A stretch of DNA of 27,191 nucleotides, taken from the NCBI GenBank assembly GCA_029974275.1, contig JARKSN010000333.1:1-27191 (forward strand). Direction: 5' to 3'. The notes beneath the pieces are model-generated. The model did no database searches. It saw only the letters and a program-made list of their open reading frames with translations, and had not been told where the DNA came from. Positions 14,163-27,191 of the stretch are shown piece after piece (positions within the stretch are counted from its first letter, which is position 1; the number at the start of each line of letters is the position of its first letter). This DNA comes from Candidatus Hydrogenedentota bacterium (GTDB lineage Bacteria > Hydrogenedentota > Hydrogenedentia > Hydrogenedentales > SLHB01). Both the position numbers and the translations under genes were made by a program.

Positions 14163-14573
14163 GAAGGCATGCCCTTTCCTCTGTGATTCTCGGCCGTGAC
14201 CTGCGCGATGAGCGTGATCCCTGGACTGGCCAAGCGGACACGGTTTCGGTGCGGCAGGACATCTTCCCAGTGTACGTAGCTCAGCAAACAACTTCAAAGG
14301 CGCGGCAACGCGCGCGAATCGTCATCTCCCTCCCGGCATCAACCGTGGCGCGTTCCACCGGCGTCGCGCGGGTCGCGCCCCGTAAGAGAAATTCGATTAT
14401 CAAGGGCAAATCGTGTATGCTTCCGGCCCGGCTGGATGCGTTTTTCCGTCCGGCAGCATAAGCCGCGCCGCAATATTCCACGGCTCAATTGCGGTTGCGC
14501 CAAAACTCGTGAACGAGAGCGGCACGAGGCCGCCTTGTATCAATACGGGCACATTAACGAAGGAGTCGCCATT

Positions 14574-16406
14574 ATGGAACATCCAGCCAACGTCAAAAAT
14601 CCAAGTCTTCTCCAATGGGTAGAAGAGATTGCAGCCCTCTGCAAGCCCGATTCGATCCGCTGGTGCGATGGGTCCCAGAAGGAATACGACGACCTCTGCG
14701 AGCAGATGGTCCAGTCGGGAACGTTCACGCGGCTCAACGAGCAAAAACGCCCAAACAGTTACTTGGCGTTTTCGGATCCCGGCGACGTAGCCCGTGTCGA
14801 AGACCGCACCTTTATCTGTTGCAAAAAAAAGGAAGACGCCGGCCCCACCAATAACTGGGTCGCTCCGGCGGAGATGAAGGCCACGTTGAACGGCCTGTTC
14901 GACGGCTGCATGCGCGGCCGGACGATGTACGTCATCCCCTTCAGCATGGGCCCGTTAGGTTCCTCGATTGCCCAAATCGGCATTGAACTCACCGATTCGC
15001 CATACGTGGTCGTCAACATGCGCATCATGACCCGCATGGGCGCCAAAGTGCTCGATGTTCTCGGCAACGGCGATTTCGTGCGGTGCGTCCACTCGGTCGG
15101 CATGCCGCTGGACAAGGGACAAGCCGACGTCGCCTGGCCCTGCAACAAGGACCACAAGTACATCGTTCACTACCCGGAAGAACGCGCCATCTGGTCCTTC
15201 GGCAGCGGCTACGGCGGCAACGCGTTGCTCGGAAAGAAATGCTTCGCCCTGCGTATCGCCTCGACGATGGCCCGTGACGAAGGCTGGCTCGCCGAGCACA
15301 TGTTGATTTTGTGCGTTGAATCGCCCCAAGGCGAGAAGACCTATGTCGCGGCGGCATTCCCGAGCGCCTGCGGCAAAACCAACTTCGCGATGCTCATTCC
15401 GCCGACGGCCATGGAAGGCTGGAAAGTCACGACCATCGGCGACGATATCGCCTGGATCAAGCCGGGCCCCGATGGCCGCCTCTATGCCATCAACCCCGAG
15501 GCGGGCTATTTCGGCGTCGCCCCGGGCACCTCGATGCACTCGAACCCCAATGCTATGTTGAGCATCGAGAAAAACAGCATCTTCACCAATGTCGCCTTGA
15601 CGCCCGATGGCGACGTGTGGTGGGAAGGCATGACCAAGACCCCGCCTCCGCAACTGACCGACTGGCAGGGCAAGCCGTGGACCCCGGATTGCGGGCGCAA
15701 AGCGGCCCATCCGAACGCCCGATTCACCGCACATGCGTCGCAGTGCCCTTGCATCGACCCCGACTGGGAGAACCCCGCAGGCGTGCCGATCAGCGCGTTT
15801 GTCTTCGGCGGCCGCCGCAGCAACACCATCCCCTTGGTCTACGAGGCGTTCAACTGGAACTACGGCGTGTACATGGCGGCGACAATGGGTTCGGAAATGA
15901 CCGCCGCCGCCGCCGGAACCATTGGTCAGGTCCGCCGCGATCCCTTCGCCATGCTGCCGTTTATGGGGTATCACGCCGGCGATTATGTCAACCATTGGTT
16001 GGGGATTGGACGTCTTATAACGGAACCGCCGCGCGTTTTCGGCGTGAACTGGTTCCGGACGGACGCCGACGGCAAGTTCCTGTGGCCAGGCTATGGCGAA
16101 AACATGCGCGTCCTCAAATGGATCGTGGAACGGGTGCGCGGCCGGGCATATGCGGTGGAGAGCCCGATCGGTTGGATGCCGCGCTACGAGGATATCGATT
16201 GGCGCGGCCTCGACGACGTTACGCAGGACCTCTTCTACGAACTAATGTCTATAGACCGCGGCATCTGGGAGCAGGAGTTGCTGAGCCACGAGGAATTGTT
16301 CATCAAATTGAGCGATCGATTGCCTAAAGAGCTCCTTTTCAAGCGCCAACTGCTTCTTTCGCGCCTTTCGCGATCGTCCATGCGGTGGGAACTGCCCAGG
16401 GGCTAG
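14574..16406 (+). CDS. pckG: phosphoenolpyruvate carboxykinase (GTP)
   Basis: [78 protein letters not shown] before ATG 14574. Confidence 0.96.
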
Positions 16407-16560
16407 ACCCCAGGGCGGATCCTTGCGGCGCGGGAAAGTTGCAACGCGGCCTACAGACAAGAGTATAGTGTTAGGCAGTAGGCGGCGCCGAGTCCGGCTT
16501 GTTGAGGATAGGCGCGTTCGCCGAAAACCGGGGACCATTTCCCCACGGAGGCACAGCGCG

Positions 16561-16713
16561 ATGAAGGGACACATAAAGACCATTTCCTCCTATGGGCAGG
16601 CCGTGAAGCTGGCCGCCGATCCTGGCGTTGTCCATGCCAAGGAATTTGGGGTGACCATCTTGACGGCTGTCAACAATCTGTTGACCCGCAAGGCGTCGGC
16701 CAGCAACAGCTGA
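16561..16713 (+). CDS. small peptide 1 of MKH array (50 aa): MKGHIKTISSYGQAVKLAADPGVVHAKEFGVTILTAVNNLLTRKASASNS
   Basis: GGAGG RBS at 16547-16551; similar leader and core to the three neighbouring small ORFs. Confidence 0.75.
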   Translation: MKGHIKTISSYGQAVKLAADPGVVHAKEFGVTILTAVNNLLTRKASASNS

Positions 16714-16762
16714 GGCCGGACGCACCATCGGAAGGGCATAAAAGATCAGGAGAATAGGTCGA

Positions 16763-16894
16763 GTGAAACACATCCGGCCATTGCCGAGACGCGCTTTCGC
16801 CGAGGCAGGACGCAATACGCCCTTTGCCGATATCGCCATACGGCTTTTGACGGGGTTGGAGGCGTTCAAGACTGGAAAATTGACGCGCCGGTAG
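16763..16894 (+). CDS. small peptide 2 of MKH array (43 aa, GTG start, not in ORF track): MKHIRPLPRRAFAEAGRNTPFADIAIRLLTGLEAFKTGKLTRR
   Basis: Translated by hand; AGGAG RBS at 16748-16752; TAG at 16892-16894; MKHI leader; core aligns without gaps to peptides 1 and 3. Confidence 0.75.
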   Translation: MKHIRPLPRRAFAEAGRNTPFADIAIRLLTGLEAFKTGKLTRR

Positions 16895-17073
16895 CGATTC
16901 TCCGCTTGACGTCTTCGGCGATCGGACTCGTACGCGGGTCTTGTGCTTCGACAGGCAGAGAGGTTTTTTTCCGAGTTTCGAGCGTATTCGCGGCTCCTGT
17001 TGACCGGAATGTGAGGGCATACGATACGGCACGAGAGTTTTCCGGTTTTCCGGAAAAAAAGGGAGAAAGTTGC

Positions 17074-17217
17074 ATGAAGCATATGAAACGAATCAGCATC
17101 GTCAAGCCACAGCGGGCGCAATCCACCAATTTCCGGGCGAAATTGAATTTTGCGCTTGGCGCCATCGACAATGGCACTTCGTATTTCACAAACAAACGAT
17201 GGGACGGCCGCTTGTAG
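17074..17217 (+). CDS. small peptide 3 of MKH array (47 aa): MKHMKRISIVKPQRAQSTNFRAKLNFALGAIDNGTSYFTNKRWDGRL
   Basis: GGGAG RBS at 17061-17065; MKH leader; AQ..NF...LNF shared with peptide 4. Confidence 0.75.
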   Translation: MKHMKRISIVKPQRAQSTNFRAKLNFALGAIDNGTSYFTNKRWDGRL

Positions 17218-17270
17218 CCGGACGTTCGAGGGTCTTTGCGCATTCCATCAAACCTTCGAGAGGAACTGTC

Positions 17271-17441
17271 ATGAAACATCGCACCAAGCATGTCTACGCC
17301 ATCACCGTTGCGCCTGTCGTTGCCCAGAACAATTTTCAGACCCTGCTCAACTTCAAGACCTCCGTCATGACACGGTTCTCTTCGCTGCAACGCTCGGCCC
17401 AATGGGGCATCAGCTTTAAGGGCTCCACGACGACGACATAG
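17271..17441 (+). CDS. small peptide 4 of MKH array (56 aa): MKHRTKHVYAITVAPVVAQNNFQTLLNFKTSVMTRFSSLQRSAQWGISFKGSTTTT
   Basis: GAGAGGA RBS ending at 17264; MKH leader; AQ.NF...LNF motif. Confidence 0.75.
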   Translation: MKHRTKHVYAITVAPVVAQNNFQTLLNFKTSVMTRFSSLQRSAQWGISFKGSTTTT

Positions 17442-17474
17442 CTTGCCGCATCGCGGGTCTTTCCGCGCGCCCTT

Positions 17475-17960
17475 TTAGGGGATGCGAGCCGTGAGGGCCT
17501 GGAAACGCGGGTGTTCGCGCAGCTTGGCGAACAGCGGAAACCGGGACAACTCGGAGCGAAGAGCGGGGGCGCAGTCCAACGCTTTCTCGAGGGCGTCAAG
17601 CGCGTCCGTTTCGCGCGGAGCCGGCAACGCAAGGTAAAACTGAGCGAGGTCGAGGTGGCCCTCGACGTTGCGGGGTTCGAGATCGGCGCCAAACCGGATC
17701 CGTTTCTCGGCTTCCTGATGTTCGCCGCATTCCCAGAGAACGCGTCCCAGCAGACGATGGGCGGGAGCCCAAGTCGGCGCCAGCTTCACGCAAGCGTTCA
17801 GCGAACGCCGGGCGGCGTCAAGATCGCGCGCCGAATAGGCGTCCACTCCTTTCTTCCACGCCGCCGCTGCACGGCGGCCCCGCGTCCATTCTCGACCCAG
17901 CCCCAGTCCCATCAACGCCAACACGACCAATACGAGCGCGATATGCATTACAACGTCCAT
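17475..17960 (-). CDS. membrane-anchored TPR repeat protein
   Basis: N-terminal TM helix; TPR-like repeats (LAPTWAPAHRLLGRVL, LEPRNVEGHLDLA, ALDALEKAL); overlaps the end of the upstream gene. Confidence 0.8.
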   Translation of the reverse strand: MDVVMHIALVLVVLALMGLGLGREWTRGRRAAAAWKKGVDAYSARDLDAARRSLNACVKLAPTWAPAHRLLGRVLWECGEHQEAEKRIRFGADLEPRNVEGHLDLAQFYLALPAPRETDALDALEKALDCAPALRSELSRFPLFAKLREHPRFQALTARIP

Positions 17961-20188
17961 GTGTCTCCTGTGTCCGTCAGGCGACGCAAGCTCAGCACAA
18001 GGCCGGCGAACGCCACGATGACGAGGGCGATTGCGCTGATGACGCTCCCAAGCATAAACGGCAAGGGACGGTAAAGGAACTGAAGGACATGTGGTCCTTC
18101 GGGCGTGTACACGCCTCGAAACAAGACGTTGACGTCAAGAATAGACGCCGGGCGACCGTCGAGCGTCGCGGTCCATCCTGGTGCGCGGGTGTCGGTTAGA
18201 ACGATGATGCCGGACTGGGGGACGTCAACGCGAACGGTGATGCGCTCGGGCGTTGTTTCGTCAATGACGCAGGAAAACGGCGGCGGCGTTTGCGGCGGCG
18301 CGGGAGAATCGGGCAGGGAGCCTGCCGTGTGGCGATCGACGACGCATTCCGCCGCAAGATTGAAGTCCGGCCGCATCAACGTATCCAGAGCGGACTCCTC
18401 CGGCGCGGTCCTCCATGCCGGCGTCCAATATGCCCGCGGCAGGGCGTCTTCGTTCTGAAATACGCGCAATGTGCCAGCTTGCGACGCTTCCCGTAGCCGC
18501 GCCCCTCGGGCCAGCAGCCGTTCGGCATGGCCGTGCGCGCCGGAATCTTCCATCAGCGCGCGCACGCTCATCGCGTGCAGGAGGTTCGCCGTGCGTTTTT
18601 CCCGGTGGCCGTCGCGCGCATCCTGATTCGCGAAGAGCGCGTCGCGCCATTCCCGCTGTCTGGGCGTCATGGCGCCGACATCGCCGTTCGCAGCGGATAT
18701 GCCGTACAAAAGCCCCACTTGTTCCGGAAGGGCGCGGGTGAGCAGCATGGCCCTTCCGCCGAAAGATTGTTCCTGGAGCGCGGTGATTGACTGCTGATGC
18801 CGTTCATACGCAACGGCGGCGGCGTCGAATGGGCGAGCGCCAGTCACCCGGCCGGCCTCCCACAAGTCCGCATACAAAAACAGCGCCAGGAGCATTCCCG
18901 AAAAGGCGCTGCTCCATCGCGTGCGGAAGAGCAGAAAAGGGAGCAGCGCCAAGACGCAAGCGAACACTCTGCCCCGGATATCGCCGCCTGCCGCCACGAA
19001 TAGGACGAGGGCAAGGAGCAGCGTCACGATCGCGGGTTTCCAAACCGGCTCCGATCGAAAATCCTGCCATGGAGTGAGCAGCCGGTCGGCGCCAATGCCC
19101 GCGAGAACCGTGAAACAGAAAACGGCAGGAAAGGCGAGCGCTTCGCGCGGAAAGCCGAGCGGCAACCGTTCTACGGTCGCTCCCGCAGTTGTCAGAACGA
19201 TGAGGAATCCGCATACGAGAGCGCTTTCGCGCCAATACCTCCGGTGCAGCGCGGCGGCCGGAGCCAGAAGCAAGGGGATAACGCCAAGATATGCGAGTCG
19301 AGGAACTATGCCGGGGCGCGGCGCAAGCATCTGCAGCGGAAGATCGCGCAGCCGATGCGGCGTTTCGGCCTGGCCGACGGATCCCCACAATGCACGCGCG
19401 GGCTGGTCCAGTTGGGAAAGCCAGAACAACGCCGGAAGCCATTGGATAGCGGTCAGCGTCAGCATGATGCCGAGGGAGAGTCCAATTCCAATGAGGGCGT
19501 CGCGCCGGTGCATCCGGCTCCCGGTTATAACGGGCGGACGCATCGCCGCAAGGAACAGAAAAAGCGCCGCAAGCGCAAGGAACATCGTGGCTGCGGCCGT
19601 TGCCCCGGAGAGAAGCAGCAACCCTCCGCTCACTCCGACGCCCAAGGTTTGGCCTTTGCCGGGATTTCTGCGGAATTCGCTCGCCGCCCAGACAAGAACC
19701 GGTCCCCATGCCAACGCGGCGGCGACGGATGGAAGGCACATGCCCGAGACCGCCGCGCCGGAAAATGCATATGCCACTCCTGCCAGAAGAGAGGGCGTGT
19801 ATCGCACTCCCAACGATCGGACAAACAGGGTCGTAGCCGTGCCCATCAGGACAAGGCTGAGTAGGGCGTTGAGCGGAGCCGCGCGTTCGGGCGAAACGAA
19901 CAGGAAGACCCAATTCAGCGGCTGAAACAGGCCCACGCGCGGATCGGCCAGGAAGGGCGCGCCGCAGAGCTGGCGCGGGTTCCAGAGCGGCACATGTCCG
20001 GCGCGGAGTTGTTCAAAGCCGTACTGCAAGGACGGATAGACGACGTGGCGGAGGTCGGCCTGTTCATGAGGCGTCATGCCTCTGTCCGGCGGCGGCGCAA
20101 CGCCAGTCCAGAACACCGGCGCGGCAACGATAAACAGGAGGGCCGCCCCGAAAAGCCGCCGCGCACTGTATCGGCTCTCTGCTTCCAT
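17948..20188 (-). CDS. YfhO-family polytopic membrane protein (GT-C fold glycosyltransferase-like)
   Basis: PLWNPRQLCGAPFLADP N-terminal motif; many TM helices; C-terminal ALPRAY, PGWTATLDG, NVLFRGV, G.HVLQFLYRP. Confidence 0.8.
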   Translation of the reverse strand: MEAESRYSARRLFGAALLFIVAAPVFWTGVAPPPDRGMTPHEQADLRHVVYPSLQYGFEQLRAGHVPLWNPRQLCGAPFLADPRVGLFQPLNWVFLFVSPERAAPLNALLSLVLMGTATTLFVRSLGVRYTPSLLAGVAYAFSGAAVSGMCLPSVAAALAWGPVLVWAASEFRRNPGKGQTLGVGVSGGLLLLSGATAAATMFLALAALFLFLAAMRPPVITGSRMHRRDALIGIGLSLGIMLTLTAIQWLPALFWLSQLDQPARALWGSVGQAETPHRLRDLPLQMLAPRPGIVPRLAYLGVIPLLLAPAAALHRRYWRESALVCGFLIVLTTAGATVERLPLGFPREALAFPAVFCFTVLAGIGADRLLTPWQDFRSEPVWKPAIVTLLLALVLFVAAGGDIRGRVFACVLALLPFLLFRTRWSSAFSGMLLALFLYADLWEAGRVTGARPFDAAAVAYERHQQSITALQEQSFGGRAMLLTRALPEQVGLLYGISAANGDVGAMTPRQREWRDALFANQDARDGHREKRTANLLHAMSVRALMEDSGAHGHAERLLARGARLREASQAGTLRVFQNEDALPRAYWTPAWRTAPEESALDTLMRPDFNLAAECVVDRHTAGSLPDSPAPPQTPPPFSCVIDETTPERITVRVDVPQSGIIVLTDTRAPGWTATLDGRPASILDVNVLFRGVYTPEGPHVLQFLYRPLPFMLGSVISAIALVIVAFAGLVLSLRRLTDTGDTWTL

Positions 20189-26598: not shown

Positions 26599-27191
26599 CT
26601 ATTTATTGGGACATGCACAAGGCTCTCCTGTGCGCTTGTCTGGTTTAGTGAAGGACTTGGAGCCGCCGATTTGCACCGCACGCCAATAGAGCCACGCGCA
26701 CGCTTTACAGAGTTGTCTTCCAGCATATGACCCTCCACAGGTTGACCTCATGTTCTTATAAAAATCACGGTCGCACTGTGGCTTTGTTTTGCTTTTGTAT
26801 TCTCCACAGCCACTATAGCAATTGTCATGTTCTTGGCATGCCGGGCTGAATTTCTTGCTAAACGGATTGCAGTATTCCGGAACAACAGCCTCACCTACTC
26901 CTTCTCCTGCTCCACACGGCCCCCGTTGCCACCCCAGTCCCAACGGGTCAAGAAAATTGATAGGATTTCCTACGACATAGGCACGGAGATTGGGCCCATC
27001 CAACATCCCGGCTGGGTCTGGCGATATCCAACGCTGCAATGTTGGCGAGTAGAACCTATACGGAGCACCGTATAGCTGCGCAGTCGCGTCCCATTCATGT
27101 CCCGTAAATAGAAGTCTTTCTGAGGTGCCCGATGTACTATACATCGTGCCATATGGTGTATACGCAAATTCACCCAGAGCACTTCGATTCG
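26599..27191 (-). CDS. Rhs repeat-associated core protein with phospholipase A2-like C-terminal toxin domain; 5' truncated by window
   Basis: Frame open to window edge (EFAYTPYG...FTGHEWD...RFYSPTLQRWISPDPAG..GPNLRAYVVGNPINFLDPLGL); tip contains ACQEHDNCY and CDRDFYKNM. Confidence 0.88.
   Translation of the reverse strand, partial: NRSALGEFAYTPYGTMYSTSGTSERLLFTGHEWDATAQLYGAPYRFYSPTLQRWISPDPAGMLDGPNLRAYVVGNPINFLDPLGLGWQRGPCGAGEGVGEAVVPEYCNPFSKKFSPACQEHDNCYSGCGEYKSKTKPQCDRDFYKNMRSTCGGSYAGRQLCKACAWLYWRAVQIGGSKSFTKPDKRTGEPCACPNK

Follow-up and report, generated by a model that had tools for sequence, protein, structure and literature searches.

A leader-defined family of small peptide genes in Hydrogenedentota as candidate precursors for a CteB-like/GNAT cassette encoded elsewhere

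Introduction

Among the families of peptides that are made by ribosomes and modified after translation (RiPPs), the SCIFF or ranthipeptide system is near-universal in Clostridia, where a physiological rather than an antibiotic role has been argued for it; as described in the same source, the RiPP recognition element (RRE) of CteB binds the precursor leader between helix 3 and strand 3, in the form of a beta strand (PMC8326336). We compare this and other described systems to an array of four small peptide open reading frames (ORFs), P1 to P4, found in a 27,191-nt stretch of DNA from a Candidatus Hydrogenedentota bacterium (positions 1 to 27,191 of the forward strand of contig JARKSN010000333.1, assembly GCA_029974275.1). 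This whole stretch is referred to as the window, and coordinates given without a contig or locus name are positions within it.

Many prochlorosin precursors are encoded far from the enzyme gene, selidamide GNATs acylate Lys or Orn side chains, and CAAX processing, to which an analogy is drawn below, follows a lipidate-then-trim logic. As described for the prochlorosins, a single promiscuous enzyme, ProcM, serves many precursors that have a shared leader and differing cores (PMC10783134), and GNAT acyltransferases are reported as RiPP tailoring enzymes for both selidamides (PMC8784127) and acetylated or lipidated lasso peptides (bioRxiv 10.1101/2024.12.31.630886). Our literature search found no description of peptides with a Met-Lys-His (MKH) leader together with a cassette of GNAT, CPBP, ABC and CteB-like genes. 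We consider it probable that P1 to P4 are orphan RiPP-like precursors, members of a multi-copy, order-wide family that is processed in trans by such a cassette encoded elsewhere in the genome. The family probably reaches the whole phylum Hydrogenedentota.

Results

Four small genes with a common start and a Lys-bearing end

The 1,068-nt gap between pckG and a convergent tetratricopeptide repeat (TPR) gene contains, as the initial annotation had reported, four co-oriented small ORFs of 50, 43, 47 and 56 amino acids (aa), each of which has, 6-9 nt upstream, a purine-rich ribosome-binding site. P1 (16561-16713, plus strand) follows the Shine-Dalgarno (SD) sequence GGAGG at 16547-16551 and has a third-position G+C fraction (GC3) of 0.75. 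The corresponding values are AGGAG at 16748-16752 and 0.68 for P2 (16763-16894, plus strand), which has a GTG start, GGGAG at 17061-17065 and 0.67 for P3 (17074-17217, plus strand), and GAGAGGA at 17258-17264 and 0.75 for P4 (17271-17441, plus strand). This GC3 range of 0.67-0.75 compares with 0.71-0.77 in the pckG, TPR and neighboring YfhO genes, and the entire gap is 56% G+C. When six frames were compared using a codon model trained on long ORFs of the window's own genome (G000), the annotated frame scored highest for each of P1 to P4. All four are listed as called proteins in public collections, by the gene callers of several sources, and are unnamed in every one of them. Judged by their SD sequences, GC3, codon scores and independent calls, the four ORFs look real. 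Sister-strain variants were found for P1, with 2 substitutions that retain the ORF and its Gly, and for P4, with 1 substitution.

Each of the four begins MK(G)H, has no acidic residue in its first 13-14 positions, and lacks both Cys and, within its first 20 residues, any GG motif. The P1 leader (MKGH...) carries a one-residue Gly insertion, that of P2 reads MKHIRPLP..., that of P3 is MKHMKRISIVKPQRAQ and that of P4 is MKHRTKHVYAITVAPVVAQ. Chance can be excluded as the source of this common start: only 26 of the 19,177 SD-preceded small ORFs of G000 begin with MKH, and 13 of those 26 are family-like by eye. At the other end, the last Lys stands 6, 4, 6 and 6 residues from the C-terminus of P1, P2, P3 and P4, respectively (P4 ends in WGISFK-GSTTTT). 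A T-x-K end had been proposed for P1 to P3; what stands of it is the position of the Lys, which is wider than first thought and found in all four.

The cores fared differently. The gap-free 19-residue core said to unite P1, P2 and P3 has only 3-4 identities in 19, and phmmer (--max) detected no similarity among the three, each of which matched only itself among 85,766 six-frame ORFs of G000. The helical hydrophobic moment of the supposedly amphipathic cores was equalled by 16-79% of shuffles. The cores of P1 to P4 are thus not significantly alike, and the paralogous relatedness claimed for them was not upheld, although P3 and P4 do have AQ-x(1-2)-NF-xxx-LNF in common. Neither Pfam nor NCBIfam (at E<=10) contains a family matching any of P1 to P4, and a match to an already characterized family is accordingly lacking there. 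A search of P4 against 5.8 billion proteins returned only its own cluster, and of the 595 pattern matches from a scan of metagenomes with P4, 0 were confirmed.

Two further observations concern P3. Directly 5' of its ribosome-binding site, at 17040-17055, stands the perfect palindrome TTCCGG-TTTT-CCGGAA with a run of A after it. It is a possible operator or RNA hairpin, and the whole G000 genome has only 5 sites that fit TTCCGG-N(2-6)-CCGGAA. Separately, the 90%-identity clusters that hold P3 and the second peptide of the cassette described below (46-47 aa) also contain proteins of 488-618 aa, namely an ABC subfamily B protein and a histidine kinase of Salinimonas, which look like clustering artefacts.

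A leader-defined family across genomes

In G000 we found about 15 candidate family ORFs, comprising 13 with an MKH start, P1 (MKGH) and one with an MRH start. They occur as the window array of four (contig C224), as arrays of three on contig C268 (with Trp-rich cores) and on contig C174, and as single ORFs on contigs C11, C24, C99, C204 and C231, and 12 of the 15 have no Cys. A leader profile of 22 positions built from 19 rows (A3) matched small open frames at E<=1 in 40/41 order-level genomes, with 3-14 per genome, and at E<=0.01 in 84 of the 101 genomes sampled across the phylum. Homologous small ORFs, whose absence from relatives would have spoken against the initial annotation, are therefore widespread. 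The 11 G000 peptides other than P1 to P4 had no NCBIfam match at E<=0.01, and an alignment of 19 peptide rows (A2) retrieved no relevant Pfam match and, when used for a profile search of the PDB, 0 matches at E<=10. A search of the ESM Atlas with a conserved cassette peptide gave no usable match.

The leader consensus is M-K/R-H-[ILV]-x-x-[ILV]-[ST]-x-x-P-A-x-A, roughly 14-16 residues long. Its conservation was counted in 41 cassette-adjacent peptides from 16 other genomes, none of them G000 (a regular expression took 44 ORFs from 16 regions, 3 of which were Arg-rich and discarded by eye). M1, K/R2, H3 and S/T8 are present in all 41, I/V/L4 in 37, I/V/L7 in 39, A14 in 30, A12 in 22 and P11 in 19; M1 and H3 are likewise invariant in the 19/19 rows of A3. 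The cores of these 41 peptides are variable, often hydrophobic and unalignable. The tail behind their last Lys is exactly 5 residues in 20/41 and 4-9 residues in 33/41, which makes a Lys followed by a short tail a new trait of the family.

The position of the array beside pckG is retained in part of the order. Small ORFs with the same start adjoin pckG in 3 of the 11 relatives examined: G018 has two downstream, G019 has one downstream, and G017 has one that is divergent and upstream. In G018 (genus g19) the two ORFs are orthologous to P3 (E 2e-7, 39% identity) and to P4 (E 2e-7, sharing WG[IV].F) and keep the same order, at a locus whose DNA is not alignable with the window and whose pckG is only 76% identical. 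As DNA, the 1068-nt stretch matched the 40 other genomes once, over 40 nt inside a 315-aa ORF of G013, which we take as chance. Relatives have orphan arrays too: G019 carries one of 4 members, and 3/8 matches in G035, a genome of a single contig, stand apart from the cassette. Orphan arrays remote from the cassette, and a pckG-linked array kept across genera, are new observations of this work.

Some members of the family stand apart. The G017 ORF divergent from pckG (locus L011:4023-4283) encodes an 86-aa member with the usual leader and core and a long Gly/Asp/Thr tail of GGDT-like repeat units, unlike every other member seen. The MKH array of three whose cores are Trp-rich (locus L042 9547-10286; C268:111546-112285, minus strand) has an extracytoplasmic function (ECF) sigma factor gene and a gene for a 522-aa unknown protein upstream, and genes for family-less proteins of 442 aa and 219 aa downstream; it may be a separately regulated subset. 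An MKH-like ORF at C99:16394-16534 (minus strand; locus L046 9395-9535) heads a module of ABC-2, DarG, DarH, acyl carrier protein and B12-radical-SAM genes. We considered whether it leads a B12-radical-SAM RiPP cluster and rejected this, the neighbors (DarG, DarH, acyl carrier protein and a lipid-type B12-radical-SAM protein) indicating a lipid module; membership of the ORF in the family is itself doubtful, because it falls outside the top 45 of the independent leader profile described below. A B12-radical-SAM gene near the C204 peptide was also considered as a partner, found to be HpnJ-like and treated as unrelated.

The cassette and its CteB-like enzyme

The three family peptides on C174 head a cassette (C174:17439-23908; locus L043 9440-15909) in which they are followed by six same-strand genes that abut or overlap at stops and starts. 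In order, these encode a weak GNAT (178 aa), a GNAT (Acetyltransf_3), an Rce1-like CPBP protease (PF02517), an ABC ATPase (ABC_tran), a separate ABC-2 permease and a 642-aa CteB-like/GNAT protein, P0002. The cassette has genes of all three kinds, peptidase, transporter and modifying enzyme, that the initial annotation had proposed to look for. Its three GNAT domains are two stand-alone and one fused. No Peptidase_C39 match was found in the transporter genes, and no metal-related genes are present in the cassette. A near-consensus promoter, TTGACA-17-TATAGT, lies 5' of the first C174 peptide. In relatives, 1-5 MKH or MRH small ORFs stand upstream of the enzyme gene in 16/16 fetched regions, and the gene series GNAT, GNAT, Rce1-like, ABC_tran, ABC-2, enzyme was established in the 3 loci annotated. 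A cassette peptide of one relative is labelled 'hypothetical protein'.

P0002 (C174 21983-23908) consists of an RRE, a barrel without the CxxxCxxC motif, a SPASM remnant and a fused GNAT. It is the sole match in G000 to TIGR03974, the SCIFF maturase model, with 48 bits against a cut-off of 425. Against CteB itself (5WGG) the E-value is 2.4e-18 over two stretches, residues 6-196 (RRE and start of the barrel), which pair with CteB 6-196 and so include CteB's RRE, and residues 343-432 (SPASM). The cysteines of the CteB CxxxCxxC stand opposite non-Cys residues in P0002, and the motif is present in 0/27 enzyme homologs. An AlphaFold model of P0002, built on 27 homologs with a mean pLDDT of 79.5, has three strands followed by three helices at residues 8-73, and its best fold match in the PDB is again CteB (5why/5wgg; E about 1e-15, TMt 0.67-0.71, about 480 columns). 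The next matches, over about 170 columns, are GNATs, including SpeG, RimJ-like enzymes and the lasso-peptide acetyltransferase 9IY3.

In an alignment of P0002 with 26 homologs (A4), conservation is highest in the RRE, with H8, R9, D20, C24, F25, C26, F27, E28, D30 and W34 invariant in the 27 sequences. A CxC is found in the RRE of 27/27 and a CxCxxC in 26/27, and the cysteines C395, C398, C404 and C427 of the SPASM remnant are invariant; from these residues, the CteB-like protein may still bind metal or one auxiliary cluster. Homologs from Candidatus Hydrogenedentes are named 'SPASM domain-containing protein', 'GNAT family N-acetyltransferase' or hypothetical in their sources. The gene is essentially single-copy and is found in 40/41 order-level and 94/101 phylum genomes.

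Linking the window peptides to the cassette

The enzyme and the leader occur together. Of the 101 phylum genomes, 83 have both, 6 have neither, 11 have the enzyme only and 1 has the leader only. Five of the six joint absences are in family f3 and one is in f14, in genomes 83-97% complete, and this joint loss of enzyme and leader is also newly described here. Because relatives are not independent, we read this pattern as a few co-losses and not as a statistic.

A second link comes from a leader profile of 20 residues that was built from the 41 cassette-adjacent peptides. G000 was left out of it because circularity was to be avoided. With all filters off, the profile was scored against the 153,956 start-codon-initiated G000 ORFs of 25-110 aa, among which P3, P4 and P2 ranked 11 (E 0.0098), 22 and 27; many of the better-ranked entries are a small number of family ORFs counted again from other starts. 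A third link comes from BLASTP against these ORFs plus the 41 cassette peptides (153,997 entries). A cassette peptide of G025 was the best non-self match both of P1 (E 0.11; 39% over 46 aa) and of P3 (E 1.1), and P4 matched best the peptide that heads the C174 cassette (E 0.33; 38% over 39 aa). That three top matches should all fall among cassette peptides is unlikely by chance, because those peptides make up about 44 of the 154,000 entries. P2 retrieved noise only from the 153,997 small ORFs, and its core has no significant relative among them. The tails of 4-6 residues behind the last Lys of P1 to P4 also agree with those of most cassette peptides.

The features of the RiPP definition that can be tested in silico are a conserved leader with a variable core and a genomically associated RRE protein, and the predicted peptides and enzyme display both. 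Leader, cassette and co-occurrence, as genomic evidence, support the initial proposal of a diversified family of leader-bearing precursors whose processing enzymes are encoded elsewhere. Three details of that proposal are unsupported: related cores, amphipathicity, and cleavage after the leader's Ala, a residue conserved at position 14 in 30/41 cassette peptides.

The array in RNA libraries

Part of the window stretch was found in 11 public runs, nine of which are recorded as RNA. Mismatch-free contigs of four RNA runs (X1, X3, X4 and X5, from 4 studies of activated sludge and biofilm) tile 16492-17446, with no strand assigned. In these four runs, 10 of 27 contig records lie wholly within 16492-17446 with 0 differences, and one run tiles 16599-17282. 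Such contigs give no strand, ends or level, and DNA carry-over is possible. The array is present in RNA libraries, which is short of proven transcription. The same four runs have no mismatch-free contig on the body of pckG or on the TPR and YfhO genes, compared with the 10 on the array; this is no sign of differential expression, because the choice of runs was guided by the array and genes cannot be ranked by contigs.

Genomic neighborhood in the window

Upstream of the array, pckG (14436-16406) has the domains PEPCK_N and PEPCK_GTP, and downstream of it the convergent TPR gene (17475-17960) is followed by the gene for a YfhO-like membrane protein. We rejected a functional link of the array to the TPR and YfhO genes, neither of which adjoins the pckG-peptide loci of G018, G019 and G017. 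A second, partial pckG, 75% identical to the window copy, stands at a contig end (C272:4-738) and could be a paralog or contamination; the contamination estimate of the G000 assembly is 3.58%. Rfam gave no match at E<=1 in window positions 16000-18000, and a promoter and terminator scan of the region was similar to shuffles (1 promoter compared with 0.5 expected, 2 terminators compared with 1.9). Elsewhere in the window, an ORF of 181 aa (26599-27144, minus strand) has a prokaryotic phospholipase A2 domain (PF09056, E 2.2e-9).

Discussion

Comparison with described systems

Like the SCIFF maturase CteB/ScfB (TIGR03974), the cassette enzyme combines an RRE, a barrel and a SPASM region, and it is a CteB homolog by both sequence and fold; the precursors are likewise small, at 40-60 aa here, and the system is near-universal in its clade. 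The leaders may also be alike in their first residues. The differences are nevertheless considerable. The window cores are free of Cys and so have no thioether donors, and the enzyme, without a CxxxCxxC, is not expected to be an active radical-SAM maturase. A fused GNAT, two extra GNATs, a CPBP protease and an ABC-2 exporter are present, and the precursors are multi-copy and scattered. The SCIFF precursor model TIGR03973 (six Cys in 45 residues, cut-off 50 bits) gave 3 matches in a six-frame scan of G000, none of them at a peptide, with a best E of 1.17. As far as sequence can tell, then, with no match to the hidden Markov model, no Cys and no active maturase, P1 to P4 are not SCIFF members.

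The prochlorosin/ProcM system of marine picocyanobacteria, with its Nif11-type leaders, is similar in that one enzyme serves many precursors with a shared leader, and differs in its lanthionine rings (Ser/Thr plus Cys), its unrelated leader family, its enzyme fold and its phylum. The GNAT-modified RiPPs are brought to mind by 9IY3, one of the structures whose fold best matches the C-terminal domain of the enzyme, and by the conserved Lys, which would be available as an acceptor. Here, however, a dead CteB-like scaffold carries the GNAT as a fused domain, genes for a lasso cyclase and of the proteusin type are absent, and acyl transfer is our proposal. The Rce1 CAAX system and bacterial CPBP bacteriocin loci resemble the cassette in having an Rce1-like protease and one conserved residue a few positions from the C-terminus; that residue is Lys here and not Cys, no prenyltransferase is present, and removal of the tail is likewise proposed. 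Double-glycine bacteriocins and pheromones have a GG cleavage motif and a C39-peptidase ABC exporter, both of which are lacking here.

Weighing the explanations

Several results weigh against P1 to P4 being precursors for this cassette. There is no physical link, the window array lying on a different contig from the cassette, between pckG and the TPR gene and not directly upstream of the cassette genes. In the independent leader profile, among the 153,956 ORFs, P4 is weak (rank 22, E 0.48), P2 marginal (rank 27, E 2.4), and P1 fails (rank 843, E 190), because a Gly interrupts its MKH. The best BLASTP E-values, at 0.11-1.1, are weak individually. The six joint absences are confined to two families and so represent few independent losses, 11 of the 94 enzyme-bearing genomes have no leader match at E<=0.01, and one genome (88% complete) has leader matches and no enzyme. 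No peptide matches the SCIFF models, and the RNA evidence consists of contigs from runs chosen for containing this very stretch.

The window ORFs might instead be copies of cassette precursors that are decaying or have lost their function, perhaps transcribed but neither processed nor required any more. An extra Gly interrupts the otherwise invariant MKH of P1, which fails the profile, the scores of P2 and P4 are weak, and apart from the G018 orthologs the cores have no significant relatives. Yet all four retain a start, an SD sequence, a frame and the C-terminal Lys, a genus with a pckG of only 76% identity has P3 and P4 downstream of it in the same order, the sister strain's P1 and P4 are intact with 2 and 1 substitutions, and orphan arrays are the rule in relatives such as G019 and G035. 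Decay is, on this balance, improbable. It is somewhat less so, though still unlikely, that the peptides are used unmodified, as signalling, bacteriocin-like or membrane-active peptides, with the leader an export or sorting tag for the ABC-2 transporter and the GNAT and CteB-like proteins acting elsewhere. The short, Cys-free cores would suit such a use, the ABC ATPase, ABC-2 permease and CPBP protease resemble bacteriocin immunity and export loci, and the CteB-like protein is incapable of radical chemistry. Against this stand the RRE as the best-conserved part of the enzyme, the single-copy enzyme gene that adjoins and co-occurs with the peptides, and three GNAT domains per cassette that have no other evident substrate.

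ATCUN sites are defined by His at position 3 of a free N-terminus, and the Met-Lys/Arg-His start could form such a Cu(II)/Ni(II) site in metal-binding or redox peptides that retain the leader. The invariance of M1 and H3 in 41/41 cassette peptides and 19/19 A3 rows is what such a site would require. Conservation continues past position 3, though, at [ILV]4, [ILV]7, [ST]8 and A14, which fits a strand bound by an RRE and is unneeded for ATCUN; P1, with MKGH, breaks the X-X-His spacing, and the cassette is without metal-related genes. We therefore think a metal site very improbable. For subunits of a surface filament, which the initial annotation had entertained, we found nothing in favor. The reading that we prefer remains that of orphan precursors served in trans by the cassette.

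A proposed pathway

From these observations we infer how binding, chemistry, cleavage, export and biological role might be arranged. The leader would dock as a beta strand on the RRE of P0002, the genome's single CteB-like protein. Strand docking is proposed because the RRE of P0002 is strongly conserved, the leader pattern is strand-like, and the CteB RRE provides a precedent. Acylation or acetylation of the peptide by P0002 and the two stand-alone GNATs would come next, and for this the conserved Lys is the obvious candidate acceptor; alternatively, the Acetyltransf_3 (RimJ/RimL-like) enzyme might act on a new N-terminus. N-acylation is a guess, made plausible because radical chemistry has been lost and three GNAT domains are present. 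The Rce1-like CPBP protease would trim the leader, the C-terminal tail or both, and the ABC-2 exporter would secrete the product. For the window array, as for the orphan arrays of relatives, processing would happen in trans, in the way that one ProcM serves prochlorosins.

The most specific form of this pathway would have a CteB-type scaffold, present in nearly all members of the order after losing radical chemistry and gaining a GNAT, acylating a scattered library of MKH-leader peptides on the Lys near the C-terminus, and the Rce1-like protease clipping the short tail, as a prokaryotic counterpart of CAAX processing based on Lys, to yield lipidated envelope or signalling peptides with a housekeeping and not an antibiotic function, the pckG array supplying four of the substrates. 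We offer this form tentatively and regard it as doubtful.

Implications

If the preferred reading is correct, this would be an undescribed class of ribosomal peptide pathway, in which a radical-SAM maturase scaffold has been reused as a leader-binding platform for acyltransferases and serves many scattered, fast-evolving precursors. The enzyme would then be of possible use in leader-directed peptide acylation. The leader profile and the fusion of a dead radical-SAM protein to a GNAT provide a handle for RiPP genome mining, and for annotation there are about 3-14 real small genes per genome in the order that carry no informative name. A physiological role is argued because the system is near-universal and single-copy: its presence as one copy in 94/101 genomes sampled from a phylum that is uncultured and often met in activated sludge suggests a core physiological, and not an accessory, function.

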